A stretch of 64,000 nt of DNA from Candidatus Azambacteria bacterium (GTDB lineage: Bacteria > Patescibacteriota > Minisyncoccia > UBA10092): positions 206,203 to 270,202 of the forward strand of contig JACRAJ010000001.1 of NCBI GenBank assembly GCA_016213445.1. Reading direction: 5' to 3'. The position numbers and the translations under genes were made by a program. How positions within the stretch are numbered: position 1 is the first letter of the stretch; each line of letters opens with the position of its first letter. Of the stretch, positions 2,128-60,294 are shown piece after piece. The notes under the pieces are model-generated. The model searched no databases and had not been told where the DNA came from. It saw nothing but the letters and a program-made list of their open reading frames with translations.

Positions 2128-4167
2128 ATGTTTAATTCTCTTTTTATTTCTTTGTTCTTTCCGTTCATCGCTTTGGTTTTCGCGGCGTATTTCATTTATT
2201 GGATAATGAAAAAAGATCAAGGGACGGATGAAATGAGACGCGTTAGCGATGCCATTCGCGAAGGCGCCGGCGCCTTCATTAACCGGCAGTATCGCGCTAT
2301 CGGGTTGATAAGCGTTATCGCGGCTTTGAGCCTTTGGGCCGCTTATTATCTATTCAACAAACCAATGCTTGGCTGGCAAATGGCGTTGGCATTTATTTTT
2401 GGCGCCGCATCTTCGGCGGTTTCGGGAATCATCGGCATGGCTATCGCGGTTCGCGCCAATTCGCGATCGGCCGCGGCCGCCAAGAGAAGCTTTAATGAAG
2501 CTTTAACTGTGGCTTTGCGCGGCGGAGCGGTTTCAGGACTGACAATCGTGGCTTTAAGCTTGATCGGCATCGCCGGTCTTTTCGGCATTTACAGGCTTTT
2601 CGGTTATGAGGCGATAAAAATTCCCTCTTTAATCGTCGGCTACGGATTTGGCGCTTCGCTGGTGGCGCTTTTCGCCCAGCTTGGCGGCGGAATTTACACG
2701 AAAGCGGCGGACGTCGGCGCCGACTTGGTCGGTAAAATCGAAGCCGGTATTCCGGAAGACGATCCGAGAAATCCGGCGGTGATTGCCGATTTGGTCGGCG
2801 ATAATGTCGGCGATTGCGCCGGCCGCGGCGCCGATCTTTTCCAGTCGACGGCGGCGGAAAACGTGGGCGCGATGATTTTAGGCGTGGCGCTTTTTCCGTA
2901 TTTCGGGATTTCCGGAATTATGTTTCCGCTGGTATTAAGAGCATTTGGGCTTTTGGCCGCCATTATCGGCGTTTTGTTTGCCAGAGCCAAAGAAAATGAC
3001 AATCCGATGAAAGCTTTAAATAAAGGTTATTTTATCACTTCCGGATTGGCGGCTTTGGCGTTTTATTTCATCACCCAAAAAATGCTCGGAAATATGTGGT
3101 TTTTCTGGGCCGGCTTGGTAGGAATTTTAACCAGCCTTATTTTCGTTTATATCACCCAATATTACACCGAAGCGAGATTTCGGCCGGTGAGAGAAATAGC
3201 CGAAGCGAGCCAGACCGGCCACGCCACAAATATTATCACCGGATATGCCGTCGGCCTCGAATCAACCGGATTCACGGTTATCGCCATTTCTTTCGCGCTT
3301 TTATCTTCATATAAATTCGGGTCGCTTTCGGGGATTCCTGGCGGCGGACTCTATGGCACGGCGGTTGCCACAATGGGAATGCTTGCCACCGCGGCGTATA
3401 TTTTGGCGATGGACACATTCGGCCCCATTGTTGACAATGGCGCCGGCATTGCCGAAATGGCGGGCGAATCCGGCCACATGCGAGACGTGATGGATAAACT
3501 GGATTCAGCCGGCAACACCACCAAAGCGCTCACCAAAGGCTATGCCATCGGTTCGGCCGCTTTGGCGACTTTTCTTCTTTTTTTGGCTTATTTGGAAGAA
3601 ACCCATCTCCAGGCGGTTGACTTGGCGAAAGTAGAAGTTTTTATAGGGGCGCTTTTAGGCGCGGCTTTGGTTTTTATTTTTTCATCTTTGGCGATTCGCG
3701 CCGTCGGGAAAGCGGCTTACGCCATAATTAACGAAGTGAGGAGGCAGTTTAAAGAAAATCCGGGCATCATGGCCGGTTCCGAAAAACCCGACTACTCAAA
3801 AGCGGTTGGCATTACCACCGGCGCCGCTTTGAAACAAATGATTTTGCCGGGAATTTTGGCCGTTGCCGTTCCGATTGCCGTTGGCCTTACGTTAAGGGCG
3901 GAAGCCGTAGCCGGATTGATTATGGTCGGCACCATTGCCGGCATTTTAATGGCGACATTTATGAACAATGCCGGCGGCGCTTGGGACAACGCCAAAAAAT
4001 GGATTGAAGCCGGCAATTTAGGCGGCAAAAAATCCCCAGCCCATCAGGCGGCCGTGACCGGCGACACCGTTGGCGATCCGTTCAAAGACACCGCCGGCCC
4101 CTCGCTTCATGTTTTAATCAAATTACTTTCCACCTTAACCCTCGCCCTCGCCGCCTTGTTTGTTTAA
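2128..4167 (+). CDS. hppA: Membrane-bound H+-translocating pyrophosphatase, K+-independent type
   Basis: GGGIYTKAADVGADLVGK and DNVGDCAGRGADLF motifs, many TM segments; GNTTKA (Lys variant) is the published K+-independence signature. Confidence 0.95.
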   Translation: MFNSLFISLFFPFIALVFAAYFIYWIMKKDQGTDEMRRVSDAIREGAGAFINRQYRAIGLISVIAALSLWAAYYLFNKPMLGWQMALAFIFGAASSAVSGIIGMAIAVRANSRSAAAAKRSFNEALTVALRGGAVSGLTIVALSLIGIAGLFGIYRLFGYEAIKIPSLIVGYGFGASLVALFAQLGGGIYTKAADVGADLVGKIEAGIPEDDPRNPAVIADLVGDNVGDCAGRGADLFQSTAAENVGAMILGVALFPYFGISGIMFPLVLRAFGLLAAIIGVLFARAKENDNPMKALNKGYFITSGLAALAFYFITQKMLGNMWFFWAGLVGILTSLIFVYITQYYTEARFRPVREIAEASQTGHATNIITGYAVGLESTGFTVIAISFALLSSYKFGSLSGIPGGGLYGTAVATMGMLATAAYILAMDTFGPIVDNGAGIAEMAGESGHMRDVMDKLDSAGNTTKALTKGYAIGSAALATFLLFLAYLEETHLQAVDLAKVEVFIGALLGAALVFIFSSLAIRAVGKAAYAIINEVRRQFKENPGIMAGSEKPDYSKAVGITTGAALKQMILPGILAVAVPIAVGLTLRAEAVAGLIMVGTIAGILMATFMNNAGGAWDNAKKWIEAGNLGGKKSPAHQAAVTGDTVGDPFKDTAGPSLHVLIKLLSTLTLALAALFV

Positions 4168-4213: not shown

Positions 4214-4747
4214 ATGGAAGATCGGGGTTTTATAAACATCGATAAAATTGTTGATCAGCTTGATATAAAGCCTAATATGACGGTTGCCGATTTTGGCGCC
4301 GGGCACGGTTTTTTTTCCATTGCTTTTGCAAAGAGAGTCGGTTTGTCCGGCCAAGTTTACGCCATAGATGTTTTGCCGCAGGCGCTGGAAGCGGTGCGTT
4401 CCAGAGCTAAGCTTGAAGGCTTGTTTAATATAAAATTAGCGCAGGGAGATTTGGATAAGCCGCGGGGTTCATCGCTTGAAAATGAAAGTTGCGACGTTGT
4501 TTTTGTCGCCAATGTCTTGTTTCAGGTTCAAAACAAGTCCGCGCTGATAAATGAAGCGAATCGCGTTTTAAAAAAAGACGGAATATTGGCGGTTATTGAA
4601 TGGAAACCGTATATTAGCCTCGGTCCGCAAAAAGGCGCGCGACTTTCGGAAGAAGAATTAAAACAGCTTGTTATCGCGAGCGGCTTTGGCGACGCGAAAC
4701 AAATTGACGCCGGCACGCATCATTTTGGTTATATTTTTAAAAAATAA
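4214..4747 (+). CDS. Class I SAM-dependent methyltransferase
   Basis: Motif I VADFGAGHGFF, Rossmann-type spacing, 177 aa; substrate unknown. Confidence 0.8.
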   Translation: MEDRGFINIDKIVDQLDIKPNMTVADFGAGHGFFSIAFAKRVGLSGQVYAIDVLPQALEAVRSRAKLEGLFNIKLAQGDLDKPRGSSLENESCDVVFVANVLFQVQNKSALINEANRVLKKDGILAVIEWKPYISLGPQKGARLSEEELKQLVIASGFGDAKQIDAGTHHFGYIFKK

Positions 4748-4865
4748 AATTTTCAATTTCTGATTTCTAAACAATTTCCAATAAACCAGTGTTTTAAACG
4801 CTTAATAATTAAAACATTGAATCATTGTTTGAAAATTGAAAATTGAGAATTGAAAATTGAAATTT
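4748..4865. repeat. Family C: AT-rich heptad-periodic imperfect palindrome filling the gap up to 16 nt before the next ATG
   Basis: 5' arm AAATTTTCAATTTCTGATTTC... faces 3' arm ...GAAAATTGAAAATTGAGAATTGAAAATTGAAATTT; right half ~85% identical to 36585-36636. Confidence 0.7.
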
Positions 4866-4881
4866 AAACATCAATGAACAA

Positions 4882-12115: not shown

Positions 12116-14341
12116 TTATTTTGGCCACGATTCAATAATAAGCGCATCGGTTTGGAGTCCCTCGGATTTTAAGCCGCCCCAAATTTCTTCGGTTATGAAC
12201 GGCAAAAAGGGATGAAGCATTTTTATGGAATTCGTTAAAATGTAAAATAAAATTTGAGCGGTGTTTTTGGCGAGTTTAGGGTTGGCCGATTGCTGTTTTG
12301 ATTTCTCGATATAAACATCGCAGAAATCATGCCAGAAAAAATCGTATAATTTGCGCAACGCTTTTCCGAATTCATATTTTTCCAGTTGTTTTTCAATTTC
12401 TTTTTTGGTTTTTTTAAAGTCGTTAAGTATTTTTTTATCATATTTTGATAATTTTAATTTGGAAATTGTTTTAAAATTGAAAATTGAAAATTGAAAATTC
12501 TCGGTTTGTAATAGTACAAACCGAGTTGCATTCCAAATTTTATTGCAGAATTTTTTTCCGGTAATCATGGCGTCTTCGGCAAACCTGATGTCTTGATTGC
12601 CGAGATTTTGGTAAATCAGGCCGAAGCGGGTGGCGTCGGCGCCGTACTTGTCGATCAGAAGAAGGGGATCGATGCCGGTGCCGAGCGATTTGGACATTCT
12701 TTTGCCCTCCTTGGTTAAAATGGTGGCGTGAATATGCGCCGTTTTAAACGGCGATTTTCCCGTGAATTCCTTTCCCGAAAAAATCATTCTTATAATCCAA
12801 AGGTTTAAAATTTCCCTTGCCGAGGCGATGTAATCGGTTGGGTAGTATGTTTTTAAATCGGCGGTTTTTTGGGGCCAGCCGAGGGTTGCGAACGGCCAAA
12901 GCGCGGACGAAAACCAGGTATCCAAAACATCGACGCTTTGTTCCATTTCGCAATTTTTGCAAATAGGACATTCTTTTGGTTTTTCCAATGAGACTATAAA
13001 ATTATCATCCTTAATTTTATTTTTTCCTTTTTTTTGTTTAGAAATTGAAAATTGAAAATTGAAAACTCCTGTCTGGTTTTTACAAAACCAGACAGGCAAC
13101 TGGTGCCCCCACCACAATTGCCGCGAAATGTTCCAGTCGCGGATATTTTTTAGCCAGTTTAACGCCATTTTTTCCCATTTTTTCGGATGCAGCGCTGTTT
13201 CTTTGCTTTTTATGGTTTTGATCGCCGACTCGGAAAGTTTGGCCATTTTCAAAAACCATTGTTTCGAAAGGCGCGGTTCGATTTTCGCGCTGCAGCGTTC
13301 GCAAAAGGCGACGTTGTGGACATAGTCTTCGGTTTTTTCGAGCAATTCGAATTTTTGAAGTTCTGCAACCACTTTTTCCCGGCATTCAATCGCTTTAAGG
13401 CCTTCGCAAATAGGTCCGGCCGTATTCGCCATTATGCCTTTTTCGTCGATTATTTTTATTTTCGGCAAATTATGCCGAAGCGACATTTCGAAATCGGCAA
13501 CATCGTGGGCCGGCGTCACCTTTACCGCGCCGGTGCCGAAATCCATATCGACGCCGCGGTCGGCGATTACGGGTATTCTGCGGTTTTGAATCGGCAGGGC
13601 GACAAATTTTCCGACCAGATGTTTATAACGGCCGTCTTTCGGGTTGACGGCTACGGCCGCGTCGCCGAGCATCGTTTCTGGCCGCGTTGTGGCAACAGTT
13701 ATAAATCCCGATTTATCGGCCAGCGGGTATTTTATATGATATAATTTTCCTTTTTCTTCGCGATATTCGATTTCCAAATCCGATATGCCGGTTTCGCATC
13801 GCGGACACCAGTTGATAACGCGTTCTCCGCGGTAAATCCATCCTTTTTTGTGGTAATGAATAAAAGCTTCCTGAACGGCTTTCGCGTAATCGTGGTCTAA
13901 AGTAAATCGCGTCCGCGACCAGTCGGGAAGCGCTCCGATTTTTTTAAGCTGTCCCAAAATAATGTGGCCGTATTTTTCTTTCCACGCCCACATTTTTTCG
14001 GTAAATTTTTCGCGGCCCAGATCTTGCCGGCGCAAACCTTCTTTGCGCAAGCTTTTTTCAACGACATTTTGCGCGGCGATGCCGGCATGGTCGATGCCCG
14101 GAAGCCACAGCGTTTTAAATCCCTGCATCCGCTTCATTCTTATAAGAATATCGATCATCGTGTTTTCCAGCGCGTGGCCAAGATGCAACGATCCGGTAAT
14201 GTTCGGCGGCGCCATCATCACCGAAAATTTTTTGGTTCTTTTTCCCGGAAGTTTGTCGGGGTTAAAACAGCCCGATTTTTCCCAAAGTTTGTATATCCGT
14301 TCTTCAACGTCTTTCGGATTGTAAGCGGTGTTTAATTTCAT
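12116..14341 (-). CDS. valS: Valyl-tRNA synthetase, short form lacking the C-terminal coiled-coil
   Basis: PPNITGSLHLGHA (HIGH), GIDHAGIAAQ, WWGHQLPVWF, DVLDTWFSS, RMSKSLG (KMSKS); ends ...IIESWPK right after the anticodon-binding domain (741 aa). Confidence 0.95.
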   Translation of the reverse strand: MKLNTAYNPKDVEERIYKLWEKSGCFNPDKLPGKRTKKFSVMMAPPNITGSLHLGHALENTMIDILIRMKRMQGFKTLWLPGIDHAGIAAQNVVEKSLRKEGLRRQDLGREKFTEKMWAWKEKYGHIILGQLKKIGALPDWSRTRFTLDHDYAKAVQEAFIHYHKKGWIYRGERVINWCPRCETGISDLEIEYREEKGKLYHIKYPLADKSGFITVATTRPETMLGDAAVAVNPKDGRYKHLVGKFVALPIQNRRIPVIADRGVDMDFGTGAVKVTPAHDVADFEMSLRHNLPKIKIIDEKGIMANTAGPICEGLKAIECREKVVAELQKFELLEKTEDYVHNVAFCERCSAKIEPRLSKQWFLKMAKLSESAIKTIKSKETALHPKKWEKMALNWLKNIRDWNISRQLWWGHQLPVWFCKNQTGVFNFQFSISKQKKGKNKIKDDNFIVSLEKPKECPICKNCEMEQSVDVLDTWFSSALWPFATLGWPQKTADLKTYYPTDYIASAREILNLWIIRMIFSGKEFTGKSPFKTAHIHATILTKEGKRMSKSLGTGIDPLLLIDKYGADATRFGLIYQNLGNQDIRFAEDAMITGKKFCNKIWNATRFVLLQTENFQFSIFNFKTISKLKLSKYDKKILNDFKKTKKEIEKQLEKYEFGKALRKLYDFFWHDFCDVYIEKSKQQSANPKLAKNTAQILFYILTNSIKMLHPFLPFITEEIWGGLKSEGLQTDALIIESWPK
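12473..12525. repeat. (AAAATTG)n heptad array plus perfect 11-bp hairpin, in-frame inside valS
   Basis: AAAATTG x3 + AAAATTC (12473-12500) then CTCGGTTTGTA-ATAG-TACAAACCGAG (12500-12525); encodes ...TRFVLLQTENFQFSIFNFK... Confidence 0.85.
13040..13096. repeat. (GAAAATT)n heptad array plus perfect 13-bp hairpin, in-frame inside valS
   Basis: AGAAATT GAAAATT GAAAATT GAAAACT (13040-13067) then CCTGTCTGGTTTT-TAC-AAAACCAGACAGG (13068-13096); encodes ...LPVWFCKNQTGVFNFQFSIS... Confidence 0.85.
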
Positions 14342-15450
14342 AAACTAAGATTAGCATCGGCTTCCAATTTTTTCCAGCCGTCTTTCGCAGGTTTTTTGCG
14401 AAGATAATTGAAGTATCCGGCGGCGGCGATCATCGCGGCGTTGTCAGTGGCGCAAGATAAATCCGGCGCGAAGAAGGGGATTCCGCATGAATTGATTTTT
14501 GCGGCCATTGCTTCCCGCAGTTTTTTATTCGCCGAAACGCCGCCGGCAATCATCACGATTTTGGGATTAAAGTTTTTAACCGCCCGGGCGGTTTTAGCCG
14601 TTAAAACGTCAATTACGGCGTTTTGAATTTCCGCGGCCATTGCCGGTTTTATTTCTTCGGGCGGGTATTTTTTTATCAAATCGTTGTATAAATATAAAAC
14701 GGCGGTTTTGAGGCCGGAAAAGGAAAAATTATAATCTTTGGAATTGATCATTGGCCGCGGCAGTTCAATATGTAATTTGTGTTTTGTAATTTGTAATTTT
14801 TTTCGGACTTCAGACTTCGGATTTGAGATTTTTGCCGCTTCTGCGGCAATAGCCGGGCCTCCGGGGAATCCCAATCCCAAAAGCCGCGCGGTCTTGTCGA
14901 AGCATTCGCCCGCCGCGTCGTCCAAAGTTCGCCCGATGATTTTATATTTTCCGTAATCGCTCATTAAAATCAGTTCCGTATGTCCCCCGGAAACAATGAG
15001 GATGACAGATGGAAAAATCCCGCCTATCCTTTCACTTAGCCAATTAGAGAAAATATGTCCCTCCATATGATTAACTCCAATTATAGGTTTCCGAAACCTA
15101 TAAGCCAAAGCGCGGGCGGCGTTGACGCCGATTAAAAGCGACGGCATCAAACCCGGCCCTCGCGTTACTGCGATAAGGTCTATATCACCGAGTTTGGTTT
15201 TTGCCGCGCTTAAAGCGCCCTTTATCGTGGGCATGATTTTTTCCAAATGGGCGCGGGAAGCGAGATTCGGCACGATGCCGCCGAATTTTTTATGAATGGC
15301 CACTTGGGAATATGATACGTTCGACAAGATCGAAAAACCCGCCTGCGCCGAGGCTTCGGTGGGCAGGGACGGATTGGCAAATCCGCCCTTTGCTTCCACC
15401 ACCGCCGCGGCGGTGTCATCGCATGATGTTTCTATTCCAAGAATTCGCAT
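14338..15450 (-). CDS. tsaD: tRNA N6-adenosine threonylcarbamoyltransferase TsaD with low-complexity insertions
   Basis: MRILGIETSCDDTAAAVV, GVNHMEGH, GGVSAN; start moved to ATG 15450 (the longer ORF runs into the toxin remnant); ATGA overlap with valS start. Confidence 0.93.
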   Translation of the reverse strand: MRILGIETSCDDTAAAVVEAKGGFANPSLPTEASAQAGFSILSNVSYSQVAIHKKFGGIVPNLASRAHLEKIMPTIKGALSAAKTKLGDIDLIAVTRGPGLMPSLLIGVNAARALAYRFRKPIIGVNHMEGHIFSNWLSERIGGIFPSVILIVSGGHTELILMSDYGKYKIIGRTLDDAAGECFDKTARLLGLGFPGGPAIAAEAAKISNPKSEVRKKLQITKHKLHIELPRPMINSKDYNFSFSGLKTAVLYLYNDLIKKYPPEEIKPAMAAEIQNAVIDVLTAKTARAVKNFNPKIVMIAGGVSANKKLREAMAAKINSCGIPFFAPDLSCATDNAAMIAAAGYFNYLRKKPAKDGWKKLEADANLSL

Positions 15451-23016: not shown

Positions 23017-23045
23017 ATAATACAATTTTTAAGTTTTATTGACAA
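23017..23045 (-). promoter_or_regulatory. sigma70-type promoter placing the start site at the gpmI ATG (leaderless)
   Basis: Minus strand TTGTCA (23045-23040), 17-nt spacer, TATTAT (23022-23017), 6 nt, ATG 23010. Confidence 0.55.
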
Positions 23046-23067
23046 AATTATGAAACGATATTAAATT
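23039..23067 (+). promoter_or_regulatory. sigma70-type promoter placing the start site at the rpsL ATG (leaderless)
   Basis: TTGACA (23039-23044), 17-nt spacer, TAAATT (23062-23067), 7 nt, ATG 23075; its -35 overlaps the -35 of the divergent gpmI promoter. Confidence 0.6.
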
Positions 23068-23074
23068 ACAGCGT

Positions 23075-23485
23075 ATGCCGACAATTCATCAATTAATAAA
23101 AAAACCAAGGAAGTCAAAAAAGAGCAAAACCAAGTCTCCGGCTTTGCAGTACTATTTTAATTCCATCAAAAACCGGCCGGTTTTTTCCGCGTCGCCGTTT
23201 AAGCGCGGCGTTTGCGTAAAAGTTTTCACCACCACCCCGAAAAAACCGAACTCGGCTTTGCGGAAAGTGGCCAGGGTCCGCCTCACCAACGGAAAAGAAG
23301 TGGCGGCTTATATTCCGGGCGAAGGCCATAATTTACAGGAACACTCCGTGGTGGTTATCCGCGGCGGCAGGGTAAAAGACCTTCCGGGCGTCCGCTACCA
23401 TATAGTTCGGGGAGTTTTGGATTTCTCCGGCGTTGACGGCAGAAAACAGCAAAGGTCCAAATACGGCGCGAAAACACCTAAGTAG
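23075..23485 (+). CDS. rpsL: 30S ribosomal protein S12
   Basis: [10 protein letters not shown]...[56 protein letters not shown]. Confidence 0.98.
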
Positions 23486-23491
23486 TAACAA

Positions 23492-23557
23492 GTGACATGA
23501 GACAAGAAATTATTTTTTATTACATGTCGCATGCCGCGTGTTATATGTCGCAAATTT
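23492..23557 (+). repeat. Left arm of a long inverted repeat bracketing rpsG
   Basis: GTGACATGAGACAAGAAATTATTTTTTATTACATGTCGCATG...ATGTCGCAAATTT; begins 6 nt after rpsL stop, ends at the rpsG ATG; complementary to 24024-24110. Confidence 0.85.
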
Positions 23558-24025
23558 ATGAGAAGAAAAACAAAAATAAAAAAAGTTGAAAATATTGATC
23601 CGAAGTACGGCAGTCCCTTGGTGGGCAAATTTGTCAATTACATCATGCGCCAAGGGAAAAAATCCACGGCCCAAAGGGTGGTTTACGGCGCTTTTGATAT
23701 TATAAAAGAAAAAACCAAGGGCGATCCGATGGAATTGTTCGAAAAGGCGATTAAAAACATCACGCCGGCTTTGGAAGTGAAATCCCGCCGTGTCGGTGGC
23801 GCCAATTATCAGGTGCCCCAGCCGGTGCGTCCGGACAGGAAAATCCAGCTGGCTTTCAGGTGGGTTATTAACGCCGCCAAAGCGAAAAAAGGCAAGTCGA
23901 TGGCCGAAAAGTTGGCCGAAGAATTTATGCTGGCGGCAAACAACGAAGGCGCGGCTATCAAGAAAAAACTGGATACCCACAGAATGGCGGAAGCGAACAG
24001 AGCGTTCGCGCATTTTAGCTGGTAA
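23558..24025 (+). CDS. rpsG: 30S ribosomal protein S7
   Basis: [46 protein letters not shown]...GGANYQVP; start moved to ATG 23558 by comparison with the usual S7 N-terminus. Confidence 0.95.
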
Positions 24026-24110
24026 ATTTGCGACATGTAATATGCAACATGCAACATGCAACATGTGACATATAATAAAAAATAATTTTTTGTCTCTTGT
24101 CTCTTGTCAC
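24024..24110 (+). repeat. Right arm of the inverted repeat bracketing rpsG
   Basis: AAATTTGCGACAT...(CATGCAA)x3...AATAAAAAATAATT...TGTCTCTTGTCTCTTGTCAC; starts inside the rpsG stop codon, ends 6 nt before fusA ATG. Confidence 0.85.
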
Positions 24111-24116
24111 TAAACT

Positions 24117-26234
24117 ATGGTTGTTAAACAAAATTATCCAATCGAAAAAGTCCGCAATATCGGCATTATCGCTCATATTGACGCCGGAAAAACAACGGTT
24201 TCCGAGCGTGTTTTGTTTTACACCGGAATTTCCCATAAAATCGGCGAGGTTCACGAGGGCGCGGCCGTTATGGACTGGATGGAGCAGGAAAGAGAGCGCG
24301 GCATCACAATTACCGCCGCGGCCACGACCGCTTTCTGGACGCCGACGCGATACGTTGCCGCCGACGCCGGCAAAGAAAACGAACATCGCATCAATATTAT
24401 AGACACCCCCGGGCACATTGATTTTACCGTTGAAGTTCAGCGGTCATTGAGGGTTTTAGACGGCGCGGTGGTGGTTTTCGACGGCGTTGCCGGCGTTGAG
24501 CCGCAATCGGAAACCGTGTGGCGCCAGGCCGACAAATACGGCGTGCCGCGAATTTGTTTTATCAACAAGCTCGACCGAACGGGCGCGTCTTTTGAAAAAA
24601 GTTTGCAGTCGATTCGCGAGCGGCTTACTTTAAACGCCGTTCCGGCGAATTTTCCGATGGGCCTTGAAGACAAATTCGAAGGCGTTGTCGATTTAATTGA
24701 AAACAAGCTTGTTCGTTTTTTTGGCGAACACGGGGAAAAATTGGAATTTTCGGAAATTCCCGAAAATTTAAAACAAGAAGCCGAGAGCGCCCGGAAACAT
24801 TTGATTGAAAAAGTCGTTGAAACCGATGACAAATTGATGGAAAAATATCTTGAAGGCGCGAAAATTTCGAGCGATGAAATCAGGCGGGCGATGAGAAGCG
24901 CGGTGATTGCCAACAAATTGGCGCCGGTTTTTTGCGGCTCGGCTTTGAAAAATAAGGGAGTTCAATTGATGCTTGACGCGGTTGTCGATTATTTGCCAAA
25001 TCCGATTGAATTGCCGCCGACCAAAGGAATCGCTCCGAGAACGGGCGAAGAATTGGAACGCCGGCCGGATGAAAACGAGCCGTTCACCGCTTTGGCTTTT
25101 AAAATCGCCACCGATCCTTATGTCGGTTCGCTTACTTTTTTCCGCGTTTACTCCGGAAAATTATCCAAAGGCTCCTATGTTTTAAATTCAACCAAAGATT
25201 CCAAAGAACGGATCGGCAGAATTTTATTGATGCACGCCAACGAAAGGGAGGAGCTTGATGAAATTAAAGCCGGGGAAATCGGCGCGGCCGTGGGTTTGAA
25301 AAACACCACCACGGGCGACACGCTTTCCGATGAAGAACATCCGATAATTTTGGAGCAGATTGTTTTTCCGGAACCGGTTATTTCCCAAAAAATCGAACCG
25401 AAAACCAAGGCCGACCAGGAAAAAATGGGCATGGCTTTGAAGCGTTTGTCCGATGAAGACCCGACTTTCAGGATTAAAACCGATGCCGACACGGGCGAAA
25501 CCATTATTTCCGGCATGGGCGAACTTCATCTTGAAATCATCGTCGATCGGATGCAAAGGGAATTCAAAGTCGGCGCCAATATTGGCCGGCCGCAGGTGGC
25601 ATATAAAGAAACAATCAAGAAAACCGCCGAAGCCGAAGGAAAATACGTAAGGCAATCCGGCGGCCGCGGCCAATACGGCCATGTTTGGTTGAGAGTCGAA
25701 CCCGGCGAACGCGGTTCCGGCTTTGAATTTATGAATGAAATCAAGGGCGGCATCATTCCGCAGGAATTTATTCCGGCTACTGAAAAGGGCGTTATCGAAG
25801 CGATGGAAAAAGGCGTAAAAGCCGGTTTTCCCGTGGTTGATATGAAAGTGGCTCTTTACGACGGCTCTTTCCATGAAGTCGACTCTTCCGAAGCCGCTTT
25901 CAAAATTGCCGGCTCCATGGCTTTCCAAGAAGCCGCGAGGCGTGCCACCGTGATTTTGCTTGAGCCGATTATGAAAGTCGAGGTGGTTGTGCCCGAGCAG
26001 TTTTTCGGCGATATCACCGGAGATTTGAATTCCAAGCGCGGCAAAATTGAGCAAATGTCCGAACGGGCGATGTTGAAAGTGATTGACGCCAAAGTGCCTC
26101 TTTCGGAAATGTTCGGCTACGCCACGAAATTGCGCTCGATGAGCCAAGGCCGCGCGAGCTATACGATGGAATTCGACCACTACGAAGAAGTGCCGAACAA
26201 CGTCGCGGAAATGATCATCGCCGGAAAAAAATAA
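24117..26234 (+). CDS. fusA: Elongation factor G
   Basis: [27 protein letters not shown], domains II-V; 705 aa. Confidence 0.98.
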
Positions 26235-26237
26235 CTT

Positions 26238-26368
26238 TAAAATTTCTAATTATTCTAATTTCTAATTAACCTAATCAAATCTCAAATCCCAATGACTAAA
26301 CCTTAGACATTAAAAATTGGAGCTTGATTAGAAATTAGGTCAATTAGAGCAATTAGGTTAATTTTAAA
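26238..26368. repeat. Family C-like AT-rich periodic imperfect palindrome between fusA and the next ORF
   Basis: Arms built from ..CTAATT / AATTAG.. units (TTAAAATTTCTAATTATTCTAATTTCTAATTAACCTAAT ... ATTAGGTCAATTAGAGCAATTAGGTTAATTTTAA); centre CAAATCCCAATGA resembles 36535-36548. Confidence 0.65.
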
Positions 26369-26370
26369 AT

Positions 26371-26715
26371 ATGTATCAAACGATAAAAAAATTTTTGGCG
26401 GAAGGCGGAAAATGCCTTTTGATTGAAGACGACAAGCCTATCGGGGTTATTTTAACCATGGAAGAATATGAGCTCTTGCAGAGCAAACCCGAAACCAAAA
26501 ATTCCAAACAAGAAAAAAATTTATTTTCCGAAATCGACAATAAATTCGCTGGCGCGGACGCGCCCGCTAAAACCACTCCCGCTCCGGCCGCAAATCCCAT
26601 CGGCGAGATGATGGCAAGGGAAATGGACTATCCCGAAGCTTCGGCCGATCTCTCCGACATCGAATCCGCCGACCTCAATCTCGAAGACCTCGGAATTGAT
26701 GAACGGCTTTATTGA
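26371..26715 (+). CDS. Hypothetical acidic protein inserted between fusA and tuf; N-terminus Phd/YefM-antitoxin-like
   Basis: KCLLIEDDKPIGVILTMEEYELL resembles the Phd/YefM beta-alpha core; the rest is low-complexity and acidic (DLSDIESADLNLEDLGIDERLY); no toxin partner. Confidence 0.5.
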   Translation: MYQTIKKFLAEGGKCLLIEDDKPIGVILTMEEYELLQSKPETKNSKQEKNLFSEIDNKFAGADAPAKTTPAPAANPIGEMMAREMDYPEASADLSDIESADLNLEDLGIDERLY

Positions 26716-32555: not shown

Positions 32556-32591
32556 ATTTTTATATTTTATTTTTGATTTTTAATTTGTATT

Positions 32592-35675: not shown

Positions 35676-36011
35676 ATGACCAAGATTAAAAATATAAAAA
35701 TTAAAAAACAAGCGAGGCATAAAAGAATCAGAGCGAAAATAAAAGGGGCGGAAAATCGGCCGCGAATTTCGGTTTTTAAATCGAATAAATATATTTACGC
35801 CCAGCTTATCGACGATAAAAACGGCAAAACATTGATTGCGATTTCAGGCGATAAGGGGCTTAAATCGGCTTACGAAGTCGGAAAGTCATTGGCGAAGAAA
35901 GCGGCGGCAAAGGGAGTAAGCGAGGTTGTTTTTGATCGCGGCGGATATAAATTTCACGGAGCGGTTTTAGAATTAGCAAAAGGCGCGAGGGAAGGCGGCC
36001 TTAAATTTTAA
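35676..36011 (+). CDS. rplR: 50S ribosomal protein L18
   Basis: [41 protein letters not shown]. Confidence 0.96.
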
Positions 36012-36020
36012 TTTTCAAAT

Positions 36021-36509
36021 ATGTTGAACAAAAGAAATCCCAATATTAAAAGAGGTTTCCAAAGGGAAAAATCTGAATTTGATCAGAAAGTTTTGGATAT
36101 CAGAAGGGTAACCCGAGTTGTGGCCGGCGGAAAAAGGTTTCGTTTTCGAGCCACGATTGTTTTAGGCGACCATAAAGGGCGCGTTGGCGTTGGCATTGCC
36201 AAAGGCGCCGATACTTCGGAAGCCATAGAAAAAGCCGGGCGGAGCGCGAAAAAGAATCTGATTTTTGTTCCGATGAAAAACAGCACCATTCCCCATGAAG
36301 TTGTCGGCAAATTTTCCAGCGCCGTGGTATTGTTCAGGCCGGCCGGGGAAGGCAGGGGCATTGTGGCCGGCGGCCCGATTCGGGCTGTGGCGAGTTTGGC
36401 GGGCATAGGCAATGTCACGTCCAAGATTTTGGGAACGACCACCAACAAATTAAACAACGCTCGGGCGGCGATAGAAGCGCTGAAAAAATTAAAATCTAAA
36501 CGACAATAA
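36021..36509 (+). CDS. rpsE: 30S ribosomal protein S5
   Basis: VLDIRRVTRVVAGGKRFRFRATIVLGD, GIGIAKG. Confidence 0.96.
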   Translation: MLNKRNPNIKRGFQREKSEFDQKVLDIRRVTRVVAGGKRFRFRATIVLGDHKGRVGVGIAKGADTSEAIEKAGRSAKKNLIFVPMKNSTIPHEVVGKFSSAVVLFRPAGEGRGIVAGGPIRAVASLAGIGNVTSKILGTTTNKLNNARAAIEALKKLKSKRQ

Positions 36510-36638
36510 TTTTCAAATTTACAATTTACAATTTTCAAATCCCATTGAATTTTCAATGAATCAATGTTCCAAACATTTGAAAATTAAAACATTAAATCAT
36601 TGATTGAAAATTGAGAATTGGAAATTGGAAATTTTTAA
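36510..36638. repeat. Family C AT-rich heptad-periodic imperfect palindrome occupying the slot where rpmD (L30) normally lies
   Basis: TTTCAAATTTACAATTTACAATTTTCAAATCCCATTGAATTTTCAATGAATCAATG ... CATTAAATCATTGATTGAAAATTGAGAATTGGAAATTGGAAATTTTT; ends 4 nt before rplO ATG. Confidence 0.7.
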
Positions 36639-38960: not shown

Positions 38961-39107
38961 AAACAACCCCGTATTCGTTTTCTCGCGGGTTGTGAGCCCG
39001 AGCGGGCATGGTTCTTCCGCCGAAGGCGGAAGAGAGCGAGGGCGAACCCTTTCATTTCCCTCGCAGGGGGAAATGAAAAAAGCGAGAAAGTGAATGCGGG
39101 GTTGTTT
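38961..39107 (+). repeat. Family B structured intergenic element, copy 1
   Basis: Outer stem AAACAACCCCGTATTC / GAATGCGGGGTTGTTT; core GCGGGTTGTGAGCCCGAGCGGGCATGGTT-[hairpin, loop GAA]-AGAGCGAGGGCGAACCCTTTCATTTCCC...GGGAAATGAAAAAAGCG; homologous to 47229-47370 inverted. Confidence 0.85.
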
Positions 39108-40261: not shown

Positions 40262-40280
40262 AACTTTTTATGTCTCTTTT

Positions 40281-40425
40281 TTCAAACCAATATAAATAAT
40301 TTTCCTCGCGCATTCGGCCGCCCAGCGGCGGCCTCATTGTCCGATGAAAGCGTTTTGCTCCGCTATGCGGAGACCATGCCAAAACGCTTTCATAAGCTTC
40401 GTAAAATTATTTATATTGTTTTGAA
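40281..40425 (+). repeat. Family A structured intergenic element, copy 1
   Basis: 23-bp outer stem TTCAAACCAATATAAATAATTTT / AAAATTATTTATATTGTTTTGAA (1 mismatch); hp1 GGCCGCC-CAGC-GGCGGCC; 14-bp stem ATGAAAGCGTTTTG / CAAAACGCTTTCAT enclosing hp2 CTCCGC-TAT-GCGGAG. Confidence 0.9.
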
Positions 40426-40465
40426 ATGAAAAAAGCGAAAAAATAAAATAATTGATTTTTTTCGC

Positions 40466-46774: not shown

Positions 46775-46779
46775 AAAGT

Positions 46780-46920
46780 ATATTGCCAAATAATAATTTT
46801 CCGAAGCTTATGAAAGCGTTTTGGCATGGCTCCCCCGCAGGGGGACAAAACGCTTTCATCGGACAATGAGCCTCGCGCTGGCGAGGCGAATGCGCGAGGA
46901 AAATTATTATTTGGCAATAT
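46780..46920 (-). repeat. Family A structured intergenic element, copy 3 (inverted orientation)
   Basis: Perfect 21-bp outer stem ATATTGCCAAATAATAATTTT / AAAATTATTATTTGGCAATAT; same core as 40281-40425 but hp1 = GCCTCGC-CAGC-GCGAGGC and hp2 = TCCCCC-TGC-GGGGGA. Confidence 0.9.
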
Positions 46921-46928
46921 AACAATAT

Positions 46929-47225
46929 ATGTTAACAAAAAAAGAAGTTGAAAAAATCGCCGGATTGGCGAGGCTGGAATTGGCCGAAAAAGAAAAAGAA
47001 AAATTCGCCGAAGATTTGTCTTCGGTGATCGGTTATGTCCAAAAACTGTCGGAAGTGAATGTTGAAAAAGTTGAGCCGATGGCGGGCGGAACGAATTTGA
47101 AAAGCGTCGTGCGAAAAGACGATGAAACCAAATGTATTTCCGATCCCGAAATGAGGAAACAAATTTTAAGCGCCGCTCCGGATCGCGAAGGCGATTATTT
47201 TAAGGTTCCGTCGATATTGGAATGA
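46929..47225 (+). CDS. gatC: Asp/Glu-tRNA amidotransferase subunit C
   Basis: 98 aa, LTKKEVEKIAGLARLELAEKEKEKFAEDLSSVIGYVQKLSEV. Confidence 0.9.
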   Translation: MLTKKEVEKIAGLARLELAEKEKEKFAEDLSSVIGYVQKLSEVNVEKVEPMAGGTNLKSVVRKDDETKCISDPEMRKQILSAAPDREGDYFKVPSILE

Positions 47226-47228
47226 TTT

Positions 47229-47370
47229 GAAAATTTTTTAATATTCATCCTCACGCTTTTTTCATTTCCCCCAGCGCGGGAAATGAAAGGGTTCGCCCTC
47301 GCTCTTGCTTCGCAAACCGTGCCTGCTCGGGCTCACAACCCGCTTTGAGGATAAATATTAAAAAATTTTC
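47229..47370 (-). repeat. Family B structured intergenic element, copy 2 (inverted orientation)
   Basis: 25-bp outer stem GAAAATTTTTTAATATTCATCCTCA / TGAGGATAAATATTAAAAAATTTTC (one C-A mismatch); core matches 38961-39107 inverted; variable hairpin TTGC-GAA-GCAA. Confidence 0.85.
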
Positions 47371-47376
47371 CTAAAT

Positions 47377-48828
47377 ATGAATTTAAAAGAATTAACAATT
47401 AAAAAAGCTCACGAACTTCTTAAAAAACGGGAAGCGAGTTCGGTTGAATTGGTTGAGGCGCATTTTGACGAGATTAAAAAACGCGACGGCGATATTTGCG
47501 CCTTTTTATCTTTAGCTGAAAAAGAGGCGACGGAGGCGGCGAAAAAAGTGGATGGAAGAATTGCGAAAGGCGAGCCGATTGAATTGCTTGCCGGAATTCC
47601 GGCGGCGATTAAAGACAATATTTTAATTCGCGGAGCCAAAGCCACCGCGGCTTCGAAAATTCTTGAAAATTATATCGCGCCTTACGACGCGACCGTTATT
47701 AAAAAACTCAAAGAAGAAGAAGCGGTATTTTTGGGAAAAACGAACATGGACGAGTTTGCCATGGGTTCTTCAACCGAAAATTCCGCTTTCGGGCCGACAA
47801 AAAATCCGATTGATTTGGAAAGAGTGCCCGGCGGTTCTTCCGGCGGTTCGGCGGCGGCGGTTAAAGCCGGCTTTTGCGTTTACGCTTTAGGTTCCGATAC
47901 CGGCGGCTCGATTCGCCAGCCGGCGGGTTTTTGCGGCGTAGTGGGCTTTAAACCGACTTACGGCGCCGTTTCCCGCCACGGATTAATGGCAATGGCTTCT
48001 TCTTTGGATCAAATCGGGCCGATCGCCAAAAATGTTGACGACGCGGCCGCGGTTTTCGAGGCGATTCGCGGCGCCGACGCGCTGGATTCTACCAGCGTTG
48101 ATATGGAATGGCAGGATTATTGGAATGAACCGGTAGATATAGAAGAAATAAAAATCGGCGTGCCGCGGGAATATTTTATCCACGGCTTGAATCCGGAAAT
48201 AGAAAAAAATATAAAATTCGCCATTCGCGCGCTGGAAAAAGAAGGCGCGAAGATTGTGGAAATTTCTTTGCCGTACAGCGAATGGGCTTTGGCGACTTAT
48301 TATATTATTATGCCGGCGGAAGTTTCGGCCAATCTGGCTCGATTTGACGGCATAAAATACGGGCATTCGGCAATCGACAAAGAAGAAAAATTGCAAAATT
48401 TATTGAAGGTTTATAATAAAAGCAGGGGAGAAAGCTTTGGAGCCGAAGCGAGGCGGAGAATTATGCTCGGAACCTACATTCTTTCCGCCGGCTATTACGA
48501 TGCTTATTATTCTCGGGCTCAAAAAGTGCGCCGGCTGATTAAACAAGATTTTGATCGCGCTTTTAAAGAAGTAGATGCCATTATAACGCCAACTTCGCCG
48601 ACAACCGCTTTCAAGTTCGGGGAAAAAATGCAAGATCCCTTGTCTATGTATCTGGCCGACATCTATACTGTTTCAATAAATTTGGCCGGCATTCCCGCCA
48701 TTTCCATTCCCGTGAAAGAAGTAAATAATTTGCCGGTCGGGCTTCAATTAATCGGCAATAATTTTGATGATATTAAATTGCTTAAAATCGCCAAGGTGGT
48801 TGAGATATTAAATAAACAGAATTTATGA
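47377..48828 (+). CDS. gatA: Glutamyl-tRNA(Gln)/Asp-tRNA(Asn) amidotransferase subunit A
   Basis: Amidase signature GGSSGGSAAAV, GSDTGGSIRQPA. Confidence 0.96.
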   Translation: MNLKELTIKKAHELLKKREASSVELVEAHFDEIKKRDGDICAFLSLAEKEATEAAKKVDGRIAKGEPIELLAGIPAAIKDNILIRGAKATAASKILENYIAPYDATVIKKLKEEEAVFLGKTNMDEFAMGSSTENSAFGPTKNPIDLERVPGGSSGGSAAAVKAGFCVYALGSDTGGSIRQPAGFCGVVGFKPTYGAVSRHGLMAMASSLDQIGPIAKNVDDAAAVFEAIRGADALDSTSVDMEWQDYWNEPVDIEEIKIGVPREYFIHGLNPEIEKNIKFAIRALEKEGAKIVEISLPYSEWALATYYIIMPAEVSANLARFDGIKYGHSAIDKEEKLQNLLKVYNKSRGESFGAEARRRIMLGTYILSAGYYDAYYSRAQKVRRLIKQDFDRAFKEVDAIITPTSPTTAFKFGEKMQDPLSMYLADIYTVSINLAGIPAISIPVKEVNNLPVGLQLIGNNFDDIKLLKIAKVVEILNKQNL

Positions 48829-49358
48829 TCGAATACGCCGCGAATATATTAAACAACTGGCAATCTTATATTATAAAACTTGGCGGTTCCGAATGGATTT
48901 TCGGCCTCAAATTGCTTGGAGGTTTTTTAGTGCTTGTTTTTGGCGGTTTGGCCGCGCTTTTGATTATAAAAATGCAGATATTCGACAAGTGGTTTAAAAC
49001 CACCGGCAATTTTCTTTTGATTCAAAAATTTCCGAAAAGGCATTTGAATAAATCATGGCAAAAAATCGCAACGCGTTTAAGTAAAAATGATGAGGCTAAT
49101 TTGCGGCTGGCTTTAATAGAGGCCGACAATCTTTTCGACAATTTATTGAAGCAAATGGGACTTCCGGGGGAGTCGATGGCCGATCGGCTGAAACTTGTCA
49201 ATTCTTCCCAAATTGCCAATATTGACGCAATTTGGCGCGCTCATAAATTGAGAAACCAAATCGTGCACAGCGCCGATTATCATGTTGATAGAAACGAAAT
49301 CGAATTCAACGTTCAGGCCTACGAAAAGGCGCTGAAAGAATTGGAGTTTATCGATTAG
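48825..49358 (+). CDS. Hypothetical single-TM protein translationally coupled to gatA
   Basis: ATGA overlap with the gatA stop; TM LLGGFLVLVFGGLAALLII; helical C-terminal domain; no recognisable family. Confidence 0.55.
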   Translation: MIEYAANILNNWQSYIIKLGGSEWIFGLKLLGGFLVLVFGGLAALLIIKMQIFDKWFKTTGNFLLIQKFPKRHLNKSWQKIATRLSKNDEANLRLALIEADNLFDNLLKQMGLPGESMADRLKLVNSSQIANIDAIWRAHKLRNQIVHSADYHVDRNEIEFNVQAYEKALKELEFID

Positions 49359-49361
49359 ACA

Positions 49362-49508
49362 AAAAACAAAAACAAAATCATTTTCCTCGCGCGCTCGTCC
49401 CGCCAGCGCGGGACTCGCTGTCCGATGAAAGCATTTTAGTCCCGCTTTGCGGGACACCGCGCTATAACGCCTTCATAAGCTTCGGAAAATGATTTTGTTT
49501 TTGTTTTT
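49362..49508 (+). repeat. Family A structured intergenic element, copy 4 (most diverged)
   Basis: Perfect 23-bp outer stem AAAAACAAAAACAAAATCATTTT / AAAATGATTTTGTTTTTGTTTTT; hp1 GTCCCGC-CAGC-GCGGGAC, hp2 GTCCCGC-TTT-GCGGGAC; central stem keeps 11 of 14 pairs. Confidence 0.85.
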
Positions 49509-49531
49509 ATGACACTGTTGCAATTTTTCTG

Positions 49532-55455: not shown

Positions 55456-55533
55456 ATGTGGGCGGCCCCGCCATGAAGGCAGGGCGCTCATAAATTTAGC
55501 TAAAAATATTAATTTTTAGAAATTTATGGCGAA
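55456..55533 (+). repeat. 78-nt leader repeat, copy 1 (upstream of and into nusG)
   Basis: ATGTGGGCGGCCCCGCCATGAAGGCAGGGCGCTCATAAATTTAGCTAAAAATATTAATTTTTAGAAATTTATGGCGAA, 100% identical to 56078-56155. Confidence 0.95.
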
Positions 55534-56077: not shown

Positions 56078-56155
56078 ATGTGGGCGGCCCCGCCATGAAG
56101 GCAGGGCGCTCATAAATTTAGCTAAAAATATTAATTTTTAGAAATTTATGGCGAA
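56078..56155 (+). repeat. 78-nt leader repeat, copy 2 (upstream of and into rplK)
   Basis: Identical to 55456-55533, including the ATG and the next 5 nt (ATGGCGAA); offset 622 nt. Confidence 0.95.
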
Positions 56156-60086: not shown

Positions 60087-60105
60087 ATTCTGTATAAAAT
60101 TTCAC

Positions 60106-60250
60106 TTCAAACCAATATAAATAATTTTTCTCGCGCATTCGGCCGCCCAGCGGCGACCTCATTGTCCGATGAAAGCGTTTTGCTCCGCTACGCGGAGACC
60201 ATGCCAAAACGCTTTCATAAGCTTCGTAAAATTATTTATATTGTTTTGAA
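60106..60250 (+). repeat. Family A structured intergenic element, copy 2
   Basis: About 97% identical to 40281-40425 including the outer stem; differences are a C-to-T in TTTTCCTCG, a G-to-A in the hp1 3' arm (C-A on plus, U-G on the transcribed minus strand) and a T-to-C in the hp2 loop. Confidence 0.9.
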
Positions 60251-60294
60251 ATAACCAATAATATATCCTAAACCCAATCTCATTGCTTTTTATC

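Follow-up and report, generated by a model that had tools for sequence, protein, structure and literature searches.

The window analysed here is a stretch of 64,000 nucleotides (nt) from Candidatus Azambacteria bacterium (contig JACRAJ010000001.1, positions 206,203 to 270,202 of the forward strand), and it holds a str-type operon with the gene order rpsL, rpsG, fusA, a 114-amino-acid (aa) open reading frame (ORF) and tuf. Our subject is the pair of spacers on either side of rpsG, the gene for ribosomal protein S7, which are reverse complements of each other and are predicted to pair around the whole S7 cistron. All the features of this locus lie on the forward strand. The gene rpsL, encoding ribosomal protein S12, occupies positions 23075-23485 (PF00164, E 9.7e-39) and ends with the stop codon TAG at 23483-23485. 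It is followed by the 72-nt rpsL-rpsG spacer (23486-23557), here called the left arm, by rpsG itself (23558-24025; 155 aa; PF00177, E 2e-61), by the 91-nt rpsG-fusA spacer (24026-24116), the right arm, and by fusA (24117-26234), which encodes EF-G and is the third gene of the operon. None of the three genes is damaged or out of frame, rpsG has the orientation of the operon, and its neighbours in the window are the genes for iPGM, S12 and EF-G.

The start of rpsG at 23558 agrees with that of every relative and of a 100%-identical NCBI protein (P0001). Within the left arm, a further ATG at 23531 lies in frame 27 nt 5' of this start, and an extension translated from it (23531-23557, MPRVICRKF) would open with MPR, the canonical bacterial S7 N-terminus. 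Since 23558 is the start used in the relatives and annotated at NCBI, this upstream ATG is probably unused and the MPR match a coincidence. No Shine-Dalgarno (SD) sequence precedes the ATG of rpsG, and the ATG of fusA likewise lacks one.

A promoter and terminator scan found a single promoter-like site, TTGACA-17-TAAATT at 23039-23067, directly upstream of rpsL, which is no more than a consensus match (10/12 positions). No second sense promoter was found, minus-strand matches were weak, and the arms held no terminator. Because the only promoter-like site stands upstream of rpsL and no terminator interrupts the arms, both arms appear to be transcribed inside the rpsL-rpsG-fusA mRNA. Three other identities considered for the arms were rejected: a promoter, as a perfect TATAAT at 24071-24076 has no usable -35 hexamer; a terminator, as none is present; and an attC-like site, as direct reading showed that the R'/R'' consensus ends are lacking.

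Complementary arms and their predicted duplex

In a repeat search, the two rpsG spacers were recovered as arms of 74 nt, 23483-23556 and 24039-24112, that are 82% complementary, together with a second register of 39 nt (23520-23558 / 24023-24061), also 82% complementary. When the left arm is aligned to the reverse complement of the right arm, 80% of the columns are identical. The score of an inverted-repeat alignment, 83, compares with a mean of 17.7 and a maximum of 30 for shuffled sequences; the match is far above chance. It includes a perfect 14-bp block, TATTACATGTCGCA/TGCGACATGTAATA. An earlier note, made from the DNA alone, had described arms that begin 6 nt past the rpsL stop and finish 6 nt before the fusA ATG, built of three complementary blocks, one of them a perfect 13-bp block, ATGTCGCAAATTT/AAATTTGCGACAT, adjoining the start and stop codons of rpsG. 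The coordinates agree with ours, the repeat search bore out the three blocks, and the 13-bp block is present. Taken alone, each arm has no more than a weak palindrome (22 nt, 73%). Compared for a possible target-site duplication, the outer borders of the arms read TAACAA and TAAACT and have TAA alone in common.

The left arm is composed of (GWGACAW) heptads, an AT-rich centre (AAATTATTTTTTATTA) and CATGTCG-type heptads, and the right arm exceeds it by whole heptad units (66 vs 87 nt). In the right arm, Tandem Repeats Finder (TRF) reports period 7 over 5.3 copies at 24029-24065 (TGCAACA) and over 2.7 copies at 24090-24108 (TTGTCTC). The heptad periodicity to which the earlier note drew attention is therefore real, and yet it is not peculiar to rpsG: period-7 arrays are common in the spacers of this genome, and the arm heptads are for that reason a genome habit and not a feature of S7.

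The duplex predicted between the spacers comprises 66 pairs, 61 Watson-Crick and 5 G.U, arranged in helices of 5, 4, 24, 10 and 23 bp. It involves positions 23488-23558 on the left and 24023-24045 and 24062-24107 on the right. From the outside inwards, a 5-bp helix (23488-23492 / 24103-24107) and a 4-bp helix (23494-23497 / 24098-24101) lead to H3, of 24 bp with one G.U pair (23499-23522 / 24073-24096), to H4, of 10 bp (23524-23533 / 24062-24071), and to H5, of 23 bp with three G.U pairs (23536-23558 / 24023-24045). The breaks between helices are two U.U mismatches, a C.A mismatch and a 2x16 loop of extra CATGCAA heptads, the 16 nt of which form an unpaired bulge in the right arm (24046-24061). 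H5 brings the start and stop of rpsG together, the innermost predicted pair joining the A of its ATG to the T of its TAA. At the other end, the fusA ATG lies 9 nt past the last predicted pair (24107), and 6 nt past the right-arm end at 24110 given in the earlier note.

Cofolding of the arm regions, including the bases of the start and stop codons, yields -86.8 kcal/mol, against -29.6 +/- 2.9 kcal/mol with shuffled partners, and the spacer-spacer pairing energy ranges from -83 to -87 kcal/mol. Local folds of both arm regions sum to -30.4 kcal/mol, with the left spacer reaching only -16 to -18 kcal/mol, so that long-range pairing beats local folding by about 53-56 kcal/mol. In the minimum free energy (MFE) structure of the whole 651-nt region, the complete cistron is enclosed by pairing of its flanks (z = -10.6), and across the left spacer the ensemble probability is 0.91 for long-range and 0.00 for local pairing. 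The proposal that the rpsL-rpsG region has a long-range partner which would loop out the complete S7 cistron thus holds in silico, each spacer being the best partner of the other.

Occurrence of the arms among relatives

In total, 168 loci were fetched, 167 of which are orthologous rpsG loci: 80 from GTDB species representatives, 80 from metagenomes and 7 found through the closest S7 proteins (the remaining one, L168, is a NusA contig and not an rpsG locus). A flank-against-flank cofold was run on 66 genes of the window and on the orthologous loci in which both rpsG spacers measure at least 30 nt (28/167). Among the window genes rpsG is the sole outlier, with a free-energy difference (ddG) of -56 kcal/mol, the next best gene reaching -16 kcal/mol and the median being -4.9 kcal/mol. 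In the comparison with the orthologous loci, the window forms 63 inter-spacer pairs at -52.8 kcal/mol, and no other locus goes below -9.2 kcal/mol. A flank inverted repeat at rpsG was found in 0/167 orthologous loci. Mild scores obtained for two loci in a first inverted-repeat scan were due to repeat-rich or low-complexity flanks, which consist of hairpin elements in L007 and of repetitive extragenic palindromic (REP)-like repeats in L065.

The highest S7 identity to any relative is 88%. The closest loci (L161-L167 and L082-L084, among others, S7 83-88% identical) also have the order iPGM-rpsL-rpsG-fusA, and in them rpsL and rpsG are separated by 3 nt or overlap, and rpsG and fusA by 0-5 nt. 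Since these relatives have neither of the long spacers, both arms were inserted along the branch that ends in the window genome. The co-varying flanks for which the earlier note had proposed to compare related str operons were accordingly not seen; the nearest relatives lack the flanks altogether, an outcome that the note itself had named as speaking against its idea.

Two further explanations of the locus were rejected. Replacement of rpsG by a horizontally acquired foreign cassette does not fit, as the divergence of S7 follows that of S12 normally (9.1 points apart here vs 7.9 +/- 5.8 in other pairs of relatives). Contig ends near rpsG in relatives had been considered as possible assembly breaks at a conserved inverted repeat, and the overlap of L004 and L008 proved to be a 12-nt tandem repeat plus an inserted gene. 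The same two loci, along with L003, L085 and L086 (from ~3490), carry an extra small ORF between rpsG and fusA, with spacers of 532-739 nt. In L166 (771-1076) and L167 (237-542), whose S7 is 86% identical, a gene for a 101-aa GIY-YIG endonuclease, another mobile element at the locus, abuts or overlaps rpsL on its upstream side; rpsL of L166 is called at 75 aa only.

Probable origin and possible role of the arms

We favour, with a probability of about 0.6, the reading that the arms are a young, lineage-specific pair of inverted-repeat insertions made of heptad and hairpin material, and not a conserved control device. The insertions would fill two junctions that measure ~3 nt in the nearest relatives and probably did so ancestrally, and their material, 7-nt units with an AT-rich centre, is of the kind that forms hairpin spacers elsewhere in this genome and in relatives. 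Two routes to such a pair appear to fit. Fold-back or template switching may have copied sequence gained in one junction, in inverted form, into the other, at a distance of ~470 nt; alternatively, an element like that of L088 (see below) may have entered each junction, each copy then losing its inner half. The half-deleted element of L087 (~2973-2986) shows that such deletions occur. Once the right arm is transcribed, the str mRNA would form an imperfect 66-bp duplex closing off the S7 cistron. One likely consequence would be cleavage within the 23-24-bp helices by a double-strand-specific RNase such as RNase III; another would be masking of the initiation regions of rpsG and fusA after right-arm transcription. 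Since the predicted duplex covers the 23 nt before the rpsG ATG and reaches to 9 nt before that of fusA, both of them SD-less, it should hinder de novo initiation, and ribosomes ending on rpsL would briefly melt its outer end, those ending on rpsG its inner end. The structure may be baggage, either neutral or slightly harmful, whose complementarity is maintained by correction of one arm against the other, and there is no evidence that it serves as a selected regulator.

Several observations weigh against this reading. Only one genome carries the arms and its next relative in S7 is 88% identical, which places the age of the insertions and any compensatory change beyond measurement. No further copy and no significant homologue of the arms exists in the 64-kb window or the 168 loci, where AT-rich chance matches alone were obtained, so that membership in a mobile family is unsupported. 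Two related insertions flanking a single gene, with no third copy nearby, would be an odd coincidence for random transposition, and an RNase III signature was not found among the genes of the 64-kb window. Finally, the MFE register contains 5 G.U pairs vs 1 C.A mismatch, which could hint at a constraint at the RNA level. This hint is weakened because the folding algorithm itself chose the register, because the gap-free register differs (4 G.U vs 6 A.C) and because the antisense strand folds nearly as well (-79.7 vs -86.8 kcal/mol); neither the wobble-pair asymmetry nor the antisense fold gave a signal of selection on the sense-strand RNA.

The G.U excess is one of several features that would also suit a selected RNA device, either a processing stem comparable to those of rRNA operons, which would excise or destabilise the rpsG segment, or a structure restoring translational coupling. 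The geometry is exact: at the base of the stem the rpsL stop and the fusA start, each 6 nt outside the arms, come to stand side by side, and at the top the stop of rpsG meets its start. The ensemble is dominated by the long-range pairing, two of the helices have, at 24 and 23 bp, the length required by double-strand RNases, the 0-5 nt separating the three genes in the nearest relatives are consistent with coupling, and the fold of the E. coli S12-S7 spacer has been proposed to bring stop and start together, easing coupled translation (PMC3616713). Against such a device stand the lack of conservation and covariation, the window genome being the sole carrier, the lack of any clear strand asymmetry and the use of local hairpins by relatives with long spacers. 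We consider it unlikely that the stem is a selected device with a role in processing or coupling. Its more specific version, in which the stem is a topological patch restoring a coupling broken by the insertions themselves, we hold to be distinctly improbable. In such a patch, the rpsL stop and the fusA start would face each other across the base of the stem at a distance of ~12 nt; ribosomes finishing rpsL would open the outer helices and expose fusA, like a shunt, and those finishing rpsG would open the inner helix and expose the start of rpsG, giving a closed-loop, self-recycling S7 message, with the first round of translation being co-transcriptional, before the right arm exists.

The feedback device considered in the earlier note, in which S7 would bind the rpsL-rpsG spacer as an autogenous operator with the long-range partner as part of it, has only position in its favour: as in E. 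coli, a folded spacer lies between stop and start at the same place in the same operon. In E. coli, the operator has a three-stem junction with 5'-CCA and 5'-UUGGA, which, with the H-III bulge, are the conserved S7-contact motifs (PMC3616713), and it folds locally over ~97 nt. The window spacer, by contrast, pairs across rpsG and is absent from close relatives, where 3 nt take its place; direct reading of its 72 nt shows neither CCA nor TTGGA, and Rfam, at gathering and permissive thresholds (E <= 5), gives no match in the rpsG region. According to Fu et al., moreover, the E. coli structure is confined to Gammaproteobacteria (PMC3616713). An S7 operator at this site is therefore highly improbable. 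A fold-back chimera or other assembly or amplification artefact in this metagenome-assembled genome (MAG) is still less probable. The feature occurs in a single MAG, and no independent assembly was found to encode exactly the same S12, S7 and EF-G; against this, fold-back chimeras give perfect reverse complements, whereas here 18% of the arm sequence and whole heptad units differ, rpsL, rpsG and fusA are undamaged, and elsewhere, at 468-2730, the window matches an independent NusA-bearing 2.3-kb Logan contig (run SRR12113407) with 100% identity. We give least credence of all to a DNA inversion switch flipping rpsG by recombination. Inverted repeats with 23-24-bp blocks do surround the 468-bp segment, but they are just 82% identical, the flip would leave rpsG, an essential gene present in a single copy, in antisense orientation to the one promoter that serves it, no recombinase is adjacent, and in the 167 orthologous loci rpsG is co-oriented with its neighbours wherever rpsL (161 loci) or fusA (143 loci) could be placed.

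Known systems offer partial parallels to the insertion pair that we favour. The processing stems of rRNA operons are RNase III sites formed by the flanks of 16S and 23S rRNA; the RNA that they enclose is stable, and their conservation across bacteria includes covariation. The predicted rpsG stem resembles them in that 5' and 3' flanks are complementary, the whole unit is enclosed and the helices exceed 20 bp, its uninterrupted helices of 24 and 23 bp surpassing the length of about 20 bp expected of such an enclosing helix. It differs in being restricted to one lineage, with no conservation or covariation in the 167 orthologous loci, and in enclosing an mRNA cistron. The Correia elements of Neisseria measure 100-155 bp and form self-contained units. 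They occur in many copies, with inverted repeats bounding a conserved core, and bind RNase III, which either cleaves or protects them (PMC2649163); Correia/NEMIS and other miniature inverted-repeat transposable elements (MITEs) or REP elements are co-transcribed with their neighbours and interact with RNase III (PMC2649163; PMC3184786). The arms are like these elements in being short non-coding inverted-repeat insertions in spacers that would be co-transcribed. They are unlike the self-contained, multi-copy Correia elements in that they fold poorly singly and bound an essential gene of 468 nt, where the terminal repeats of a MITE bound a short non-coding unit.

A further likeness is to the self-folding hairpins in the rpsG spacers of relatives (L088, L001, L007, L081, L087 and L093), which occupy the same junctions with long AT-rich stems and are equally lineage-specific. 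The downstream element of L088 begins with 13 nt, ATGAGACAAGAAA, that are identical to the outer end of the window left arm (E = 0.6), a match that is only a lead. The difference lies in the partner: the spacers of the relatives each pair with themselves, and those of the window alone pair mutually (-53 kcal/mol).

At present the rpsG stem is a single-genome curiosity without functional evidence. If it forms in vivo, an essential ribosomal-protein cistron would be naturally enclosed in a long double-stranded RNA stem within a tightly coupled operon. It would then be a test case for the structure tolerated at coupled junctions, for the handling of mRNA-internal stems by double-strand-specific RNases, and for how inverted repeats arise and remain complementary. 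More broadly, several hairpin families and 7-nt arrays have landed repeatedly in the ribosomal-protein operon junctions of these small genomes of the candidate phyla radiation (CPR), and no description of such landings in CPR bacteria was found in the literature searched. The hairpin repertoire of CPR ribosomal-protein operons is arguably a more promising lead than the rpsG site.

Hairpin elements and heptad arrays in the lineage

The window holds three multi-copy hairpin families, A, B and C, and many period-7 arrays. Family A, ~147 nt long, is present in four copies, at 40280-40427, 60105-60252 and 49362-49508 on the forward strand and at 46779-46921 on the reverse strand, and has homologues in L088 (5696-5830), L095 (5580-5703) and L093 (2936-3095, reverse strand). 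Its perfect AT-rich outer stems of 24-25 bp differ in sequence between copies and enclose a conserved, GC-rich core of ~95 nt (…GUCCGAUGAAAGCGUUUU…AAAACGCUUUCAUAAGCUUCGGAAAAU). Compensatory changes are seen in 29/54 pairs of the consensus structure, and a copy in a genome with only 80% S7 identity is 86% identical. Family A has no Rfam match and could be an undescribed structured RNA or a mobile element. Its cores differ by 15-21% between copies while the outer stems stay perfect, which suggests that some process keeps nearby arms complementary; selection or arm-to-arm correction at replication may be that process, and it could act at rpsG too.

Family B is a hairpin with a GC-rich core in two copies (38961-39089 and, on the reverse strand, 47229-47370) that are 80% identical over 111 nt and have outer stems of 25-29 bp. 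The spacers around 46775-49530 are crowded with copies of families A and B, and two opposite copies of family A bracket the genes at 46929-49358 as an inverted repeat of 62 nt and 84% identity. Family C is a heptad-array hairpin, (AATTTTC)n / (GAAAATT)n, found at 4731-4881 and 36506-36633 and in part at 12445-12499 and 13034-13065; it also occurs in the rpsG spacers of other Parcubacteria (L001 2912-2991, L032 2902-2996 and L098/L099 3484-3582). Another ribosomal-protein gene, rpsE (S5), is bracketed by an inverted repeat of 25 nt and 88% identity (36006-36030 / 36565-36589), far weaker than that of rpsG.

Period-7 tandem arrays occupy more than a dozen sites of the window, mostly in or beside spacers, for example 468-506, 4829-4862, 12473-12499, 13042-13065, 14767-14799, 26241-26267, 32558-32586, 36516-36538 and 36603-36633. 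Complementary heptad arrays often stand on both sides of a spacer, as in the hairpin after fusA (26228-26272 / 26321-26365). This heptad hairpin spacer precedes the 114-aa ORF between fusA and tuf (26371-26715), which has no Pfam family. In searches of the other hairpin elements of the window and of those of the relatives, Rfam returned tRNAs and spurious matches to miRNA hairpins only.

The rpsG junctions of relatives are themselves recurrent sites of hairpin elements. A second element flanks rpsG in L088 (2925-2964 and 3500-3539), L001 (3530-3576) and L007 (2907-2948, reverse strand). It has a long AT-rich stem and a core, GGYGGGGGCGAGCC-(variable covarying hairpin)-GGGGCTAAG, and occurs in either orientation. 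In L088 there is one copy in each rpsG spacer, in direct orientation, with the stem GAGACAAGAAAATAAAATTTAAAAATTC and the core GGCGGGGGCGAGCC-hairpin-GGGGCTAAG; its spacers fold on themselves with -49.8 and -49.3 kcal/mol and form zero inter-spacer pairs. The same holds for the other relatives with long rpsG spacers, each spacer folding on itself with an inter-spacer ddG of 0 to -9 kcal/mol. The element lies downstream of rpsG in L001 and upstream, reversed, in L007, where a core-less hairpin with the same stem is found downstream (3466-3530), which gives the core the look of an insertion into the loop of a hairpin. The rpsG spacers of L081 and L093 contain other hairpins.

Repeats of other kinds were also encountered. 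In the window, a direct repeat of 78 nt, 100% identical, lies directly upstream of nusG and rplK (55456-55533 and 56078-56155) and extends over the initial 8 nt of either gene. A GC-rich hairpin (GGGCGGCCCCGCC…) lies within it, as does an AT-rich palindrome (TTTAGCTAAAAATATTAATTTTTAGAAATTT), and the repeat may be a duplicated leader or promoter. In L065, REP-like GC-rich repeats (…GAGCGGAGCGAA…) flank rpsG on both sides (~2840-3000 and 3466-3640), and the end of rpsG is duplicated over 12 nt (CTTCGCCTGGTAA), which may be a target-site duplication. A motif, TGTAGCTAAAWTTT…GCTACA, situated ~40 nt upstream of rpsG, is common to L065, L093 and L096.

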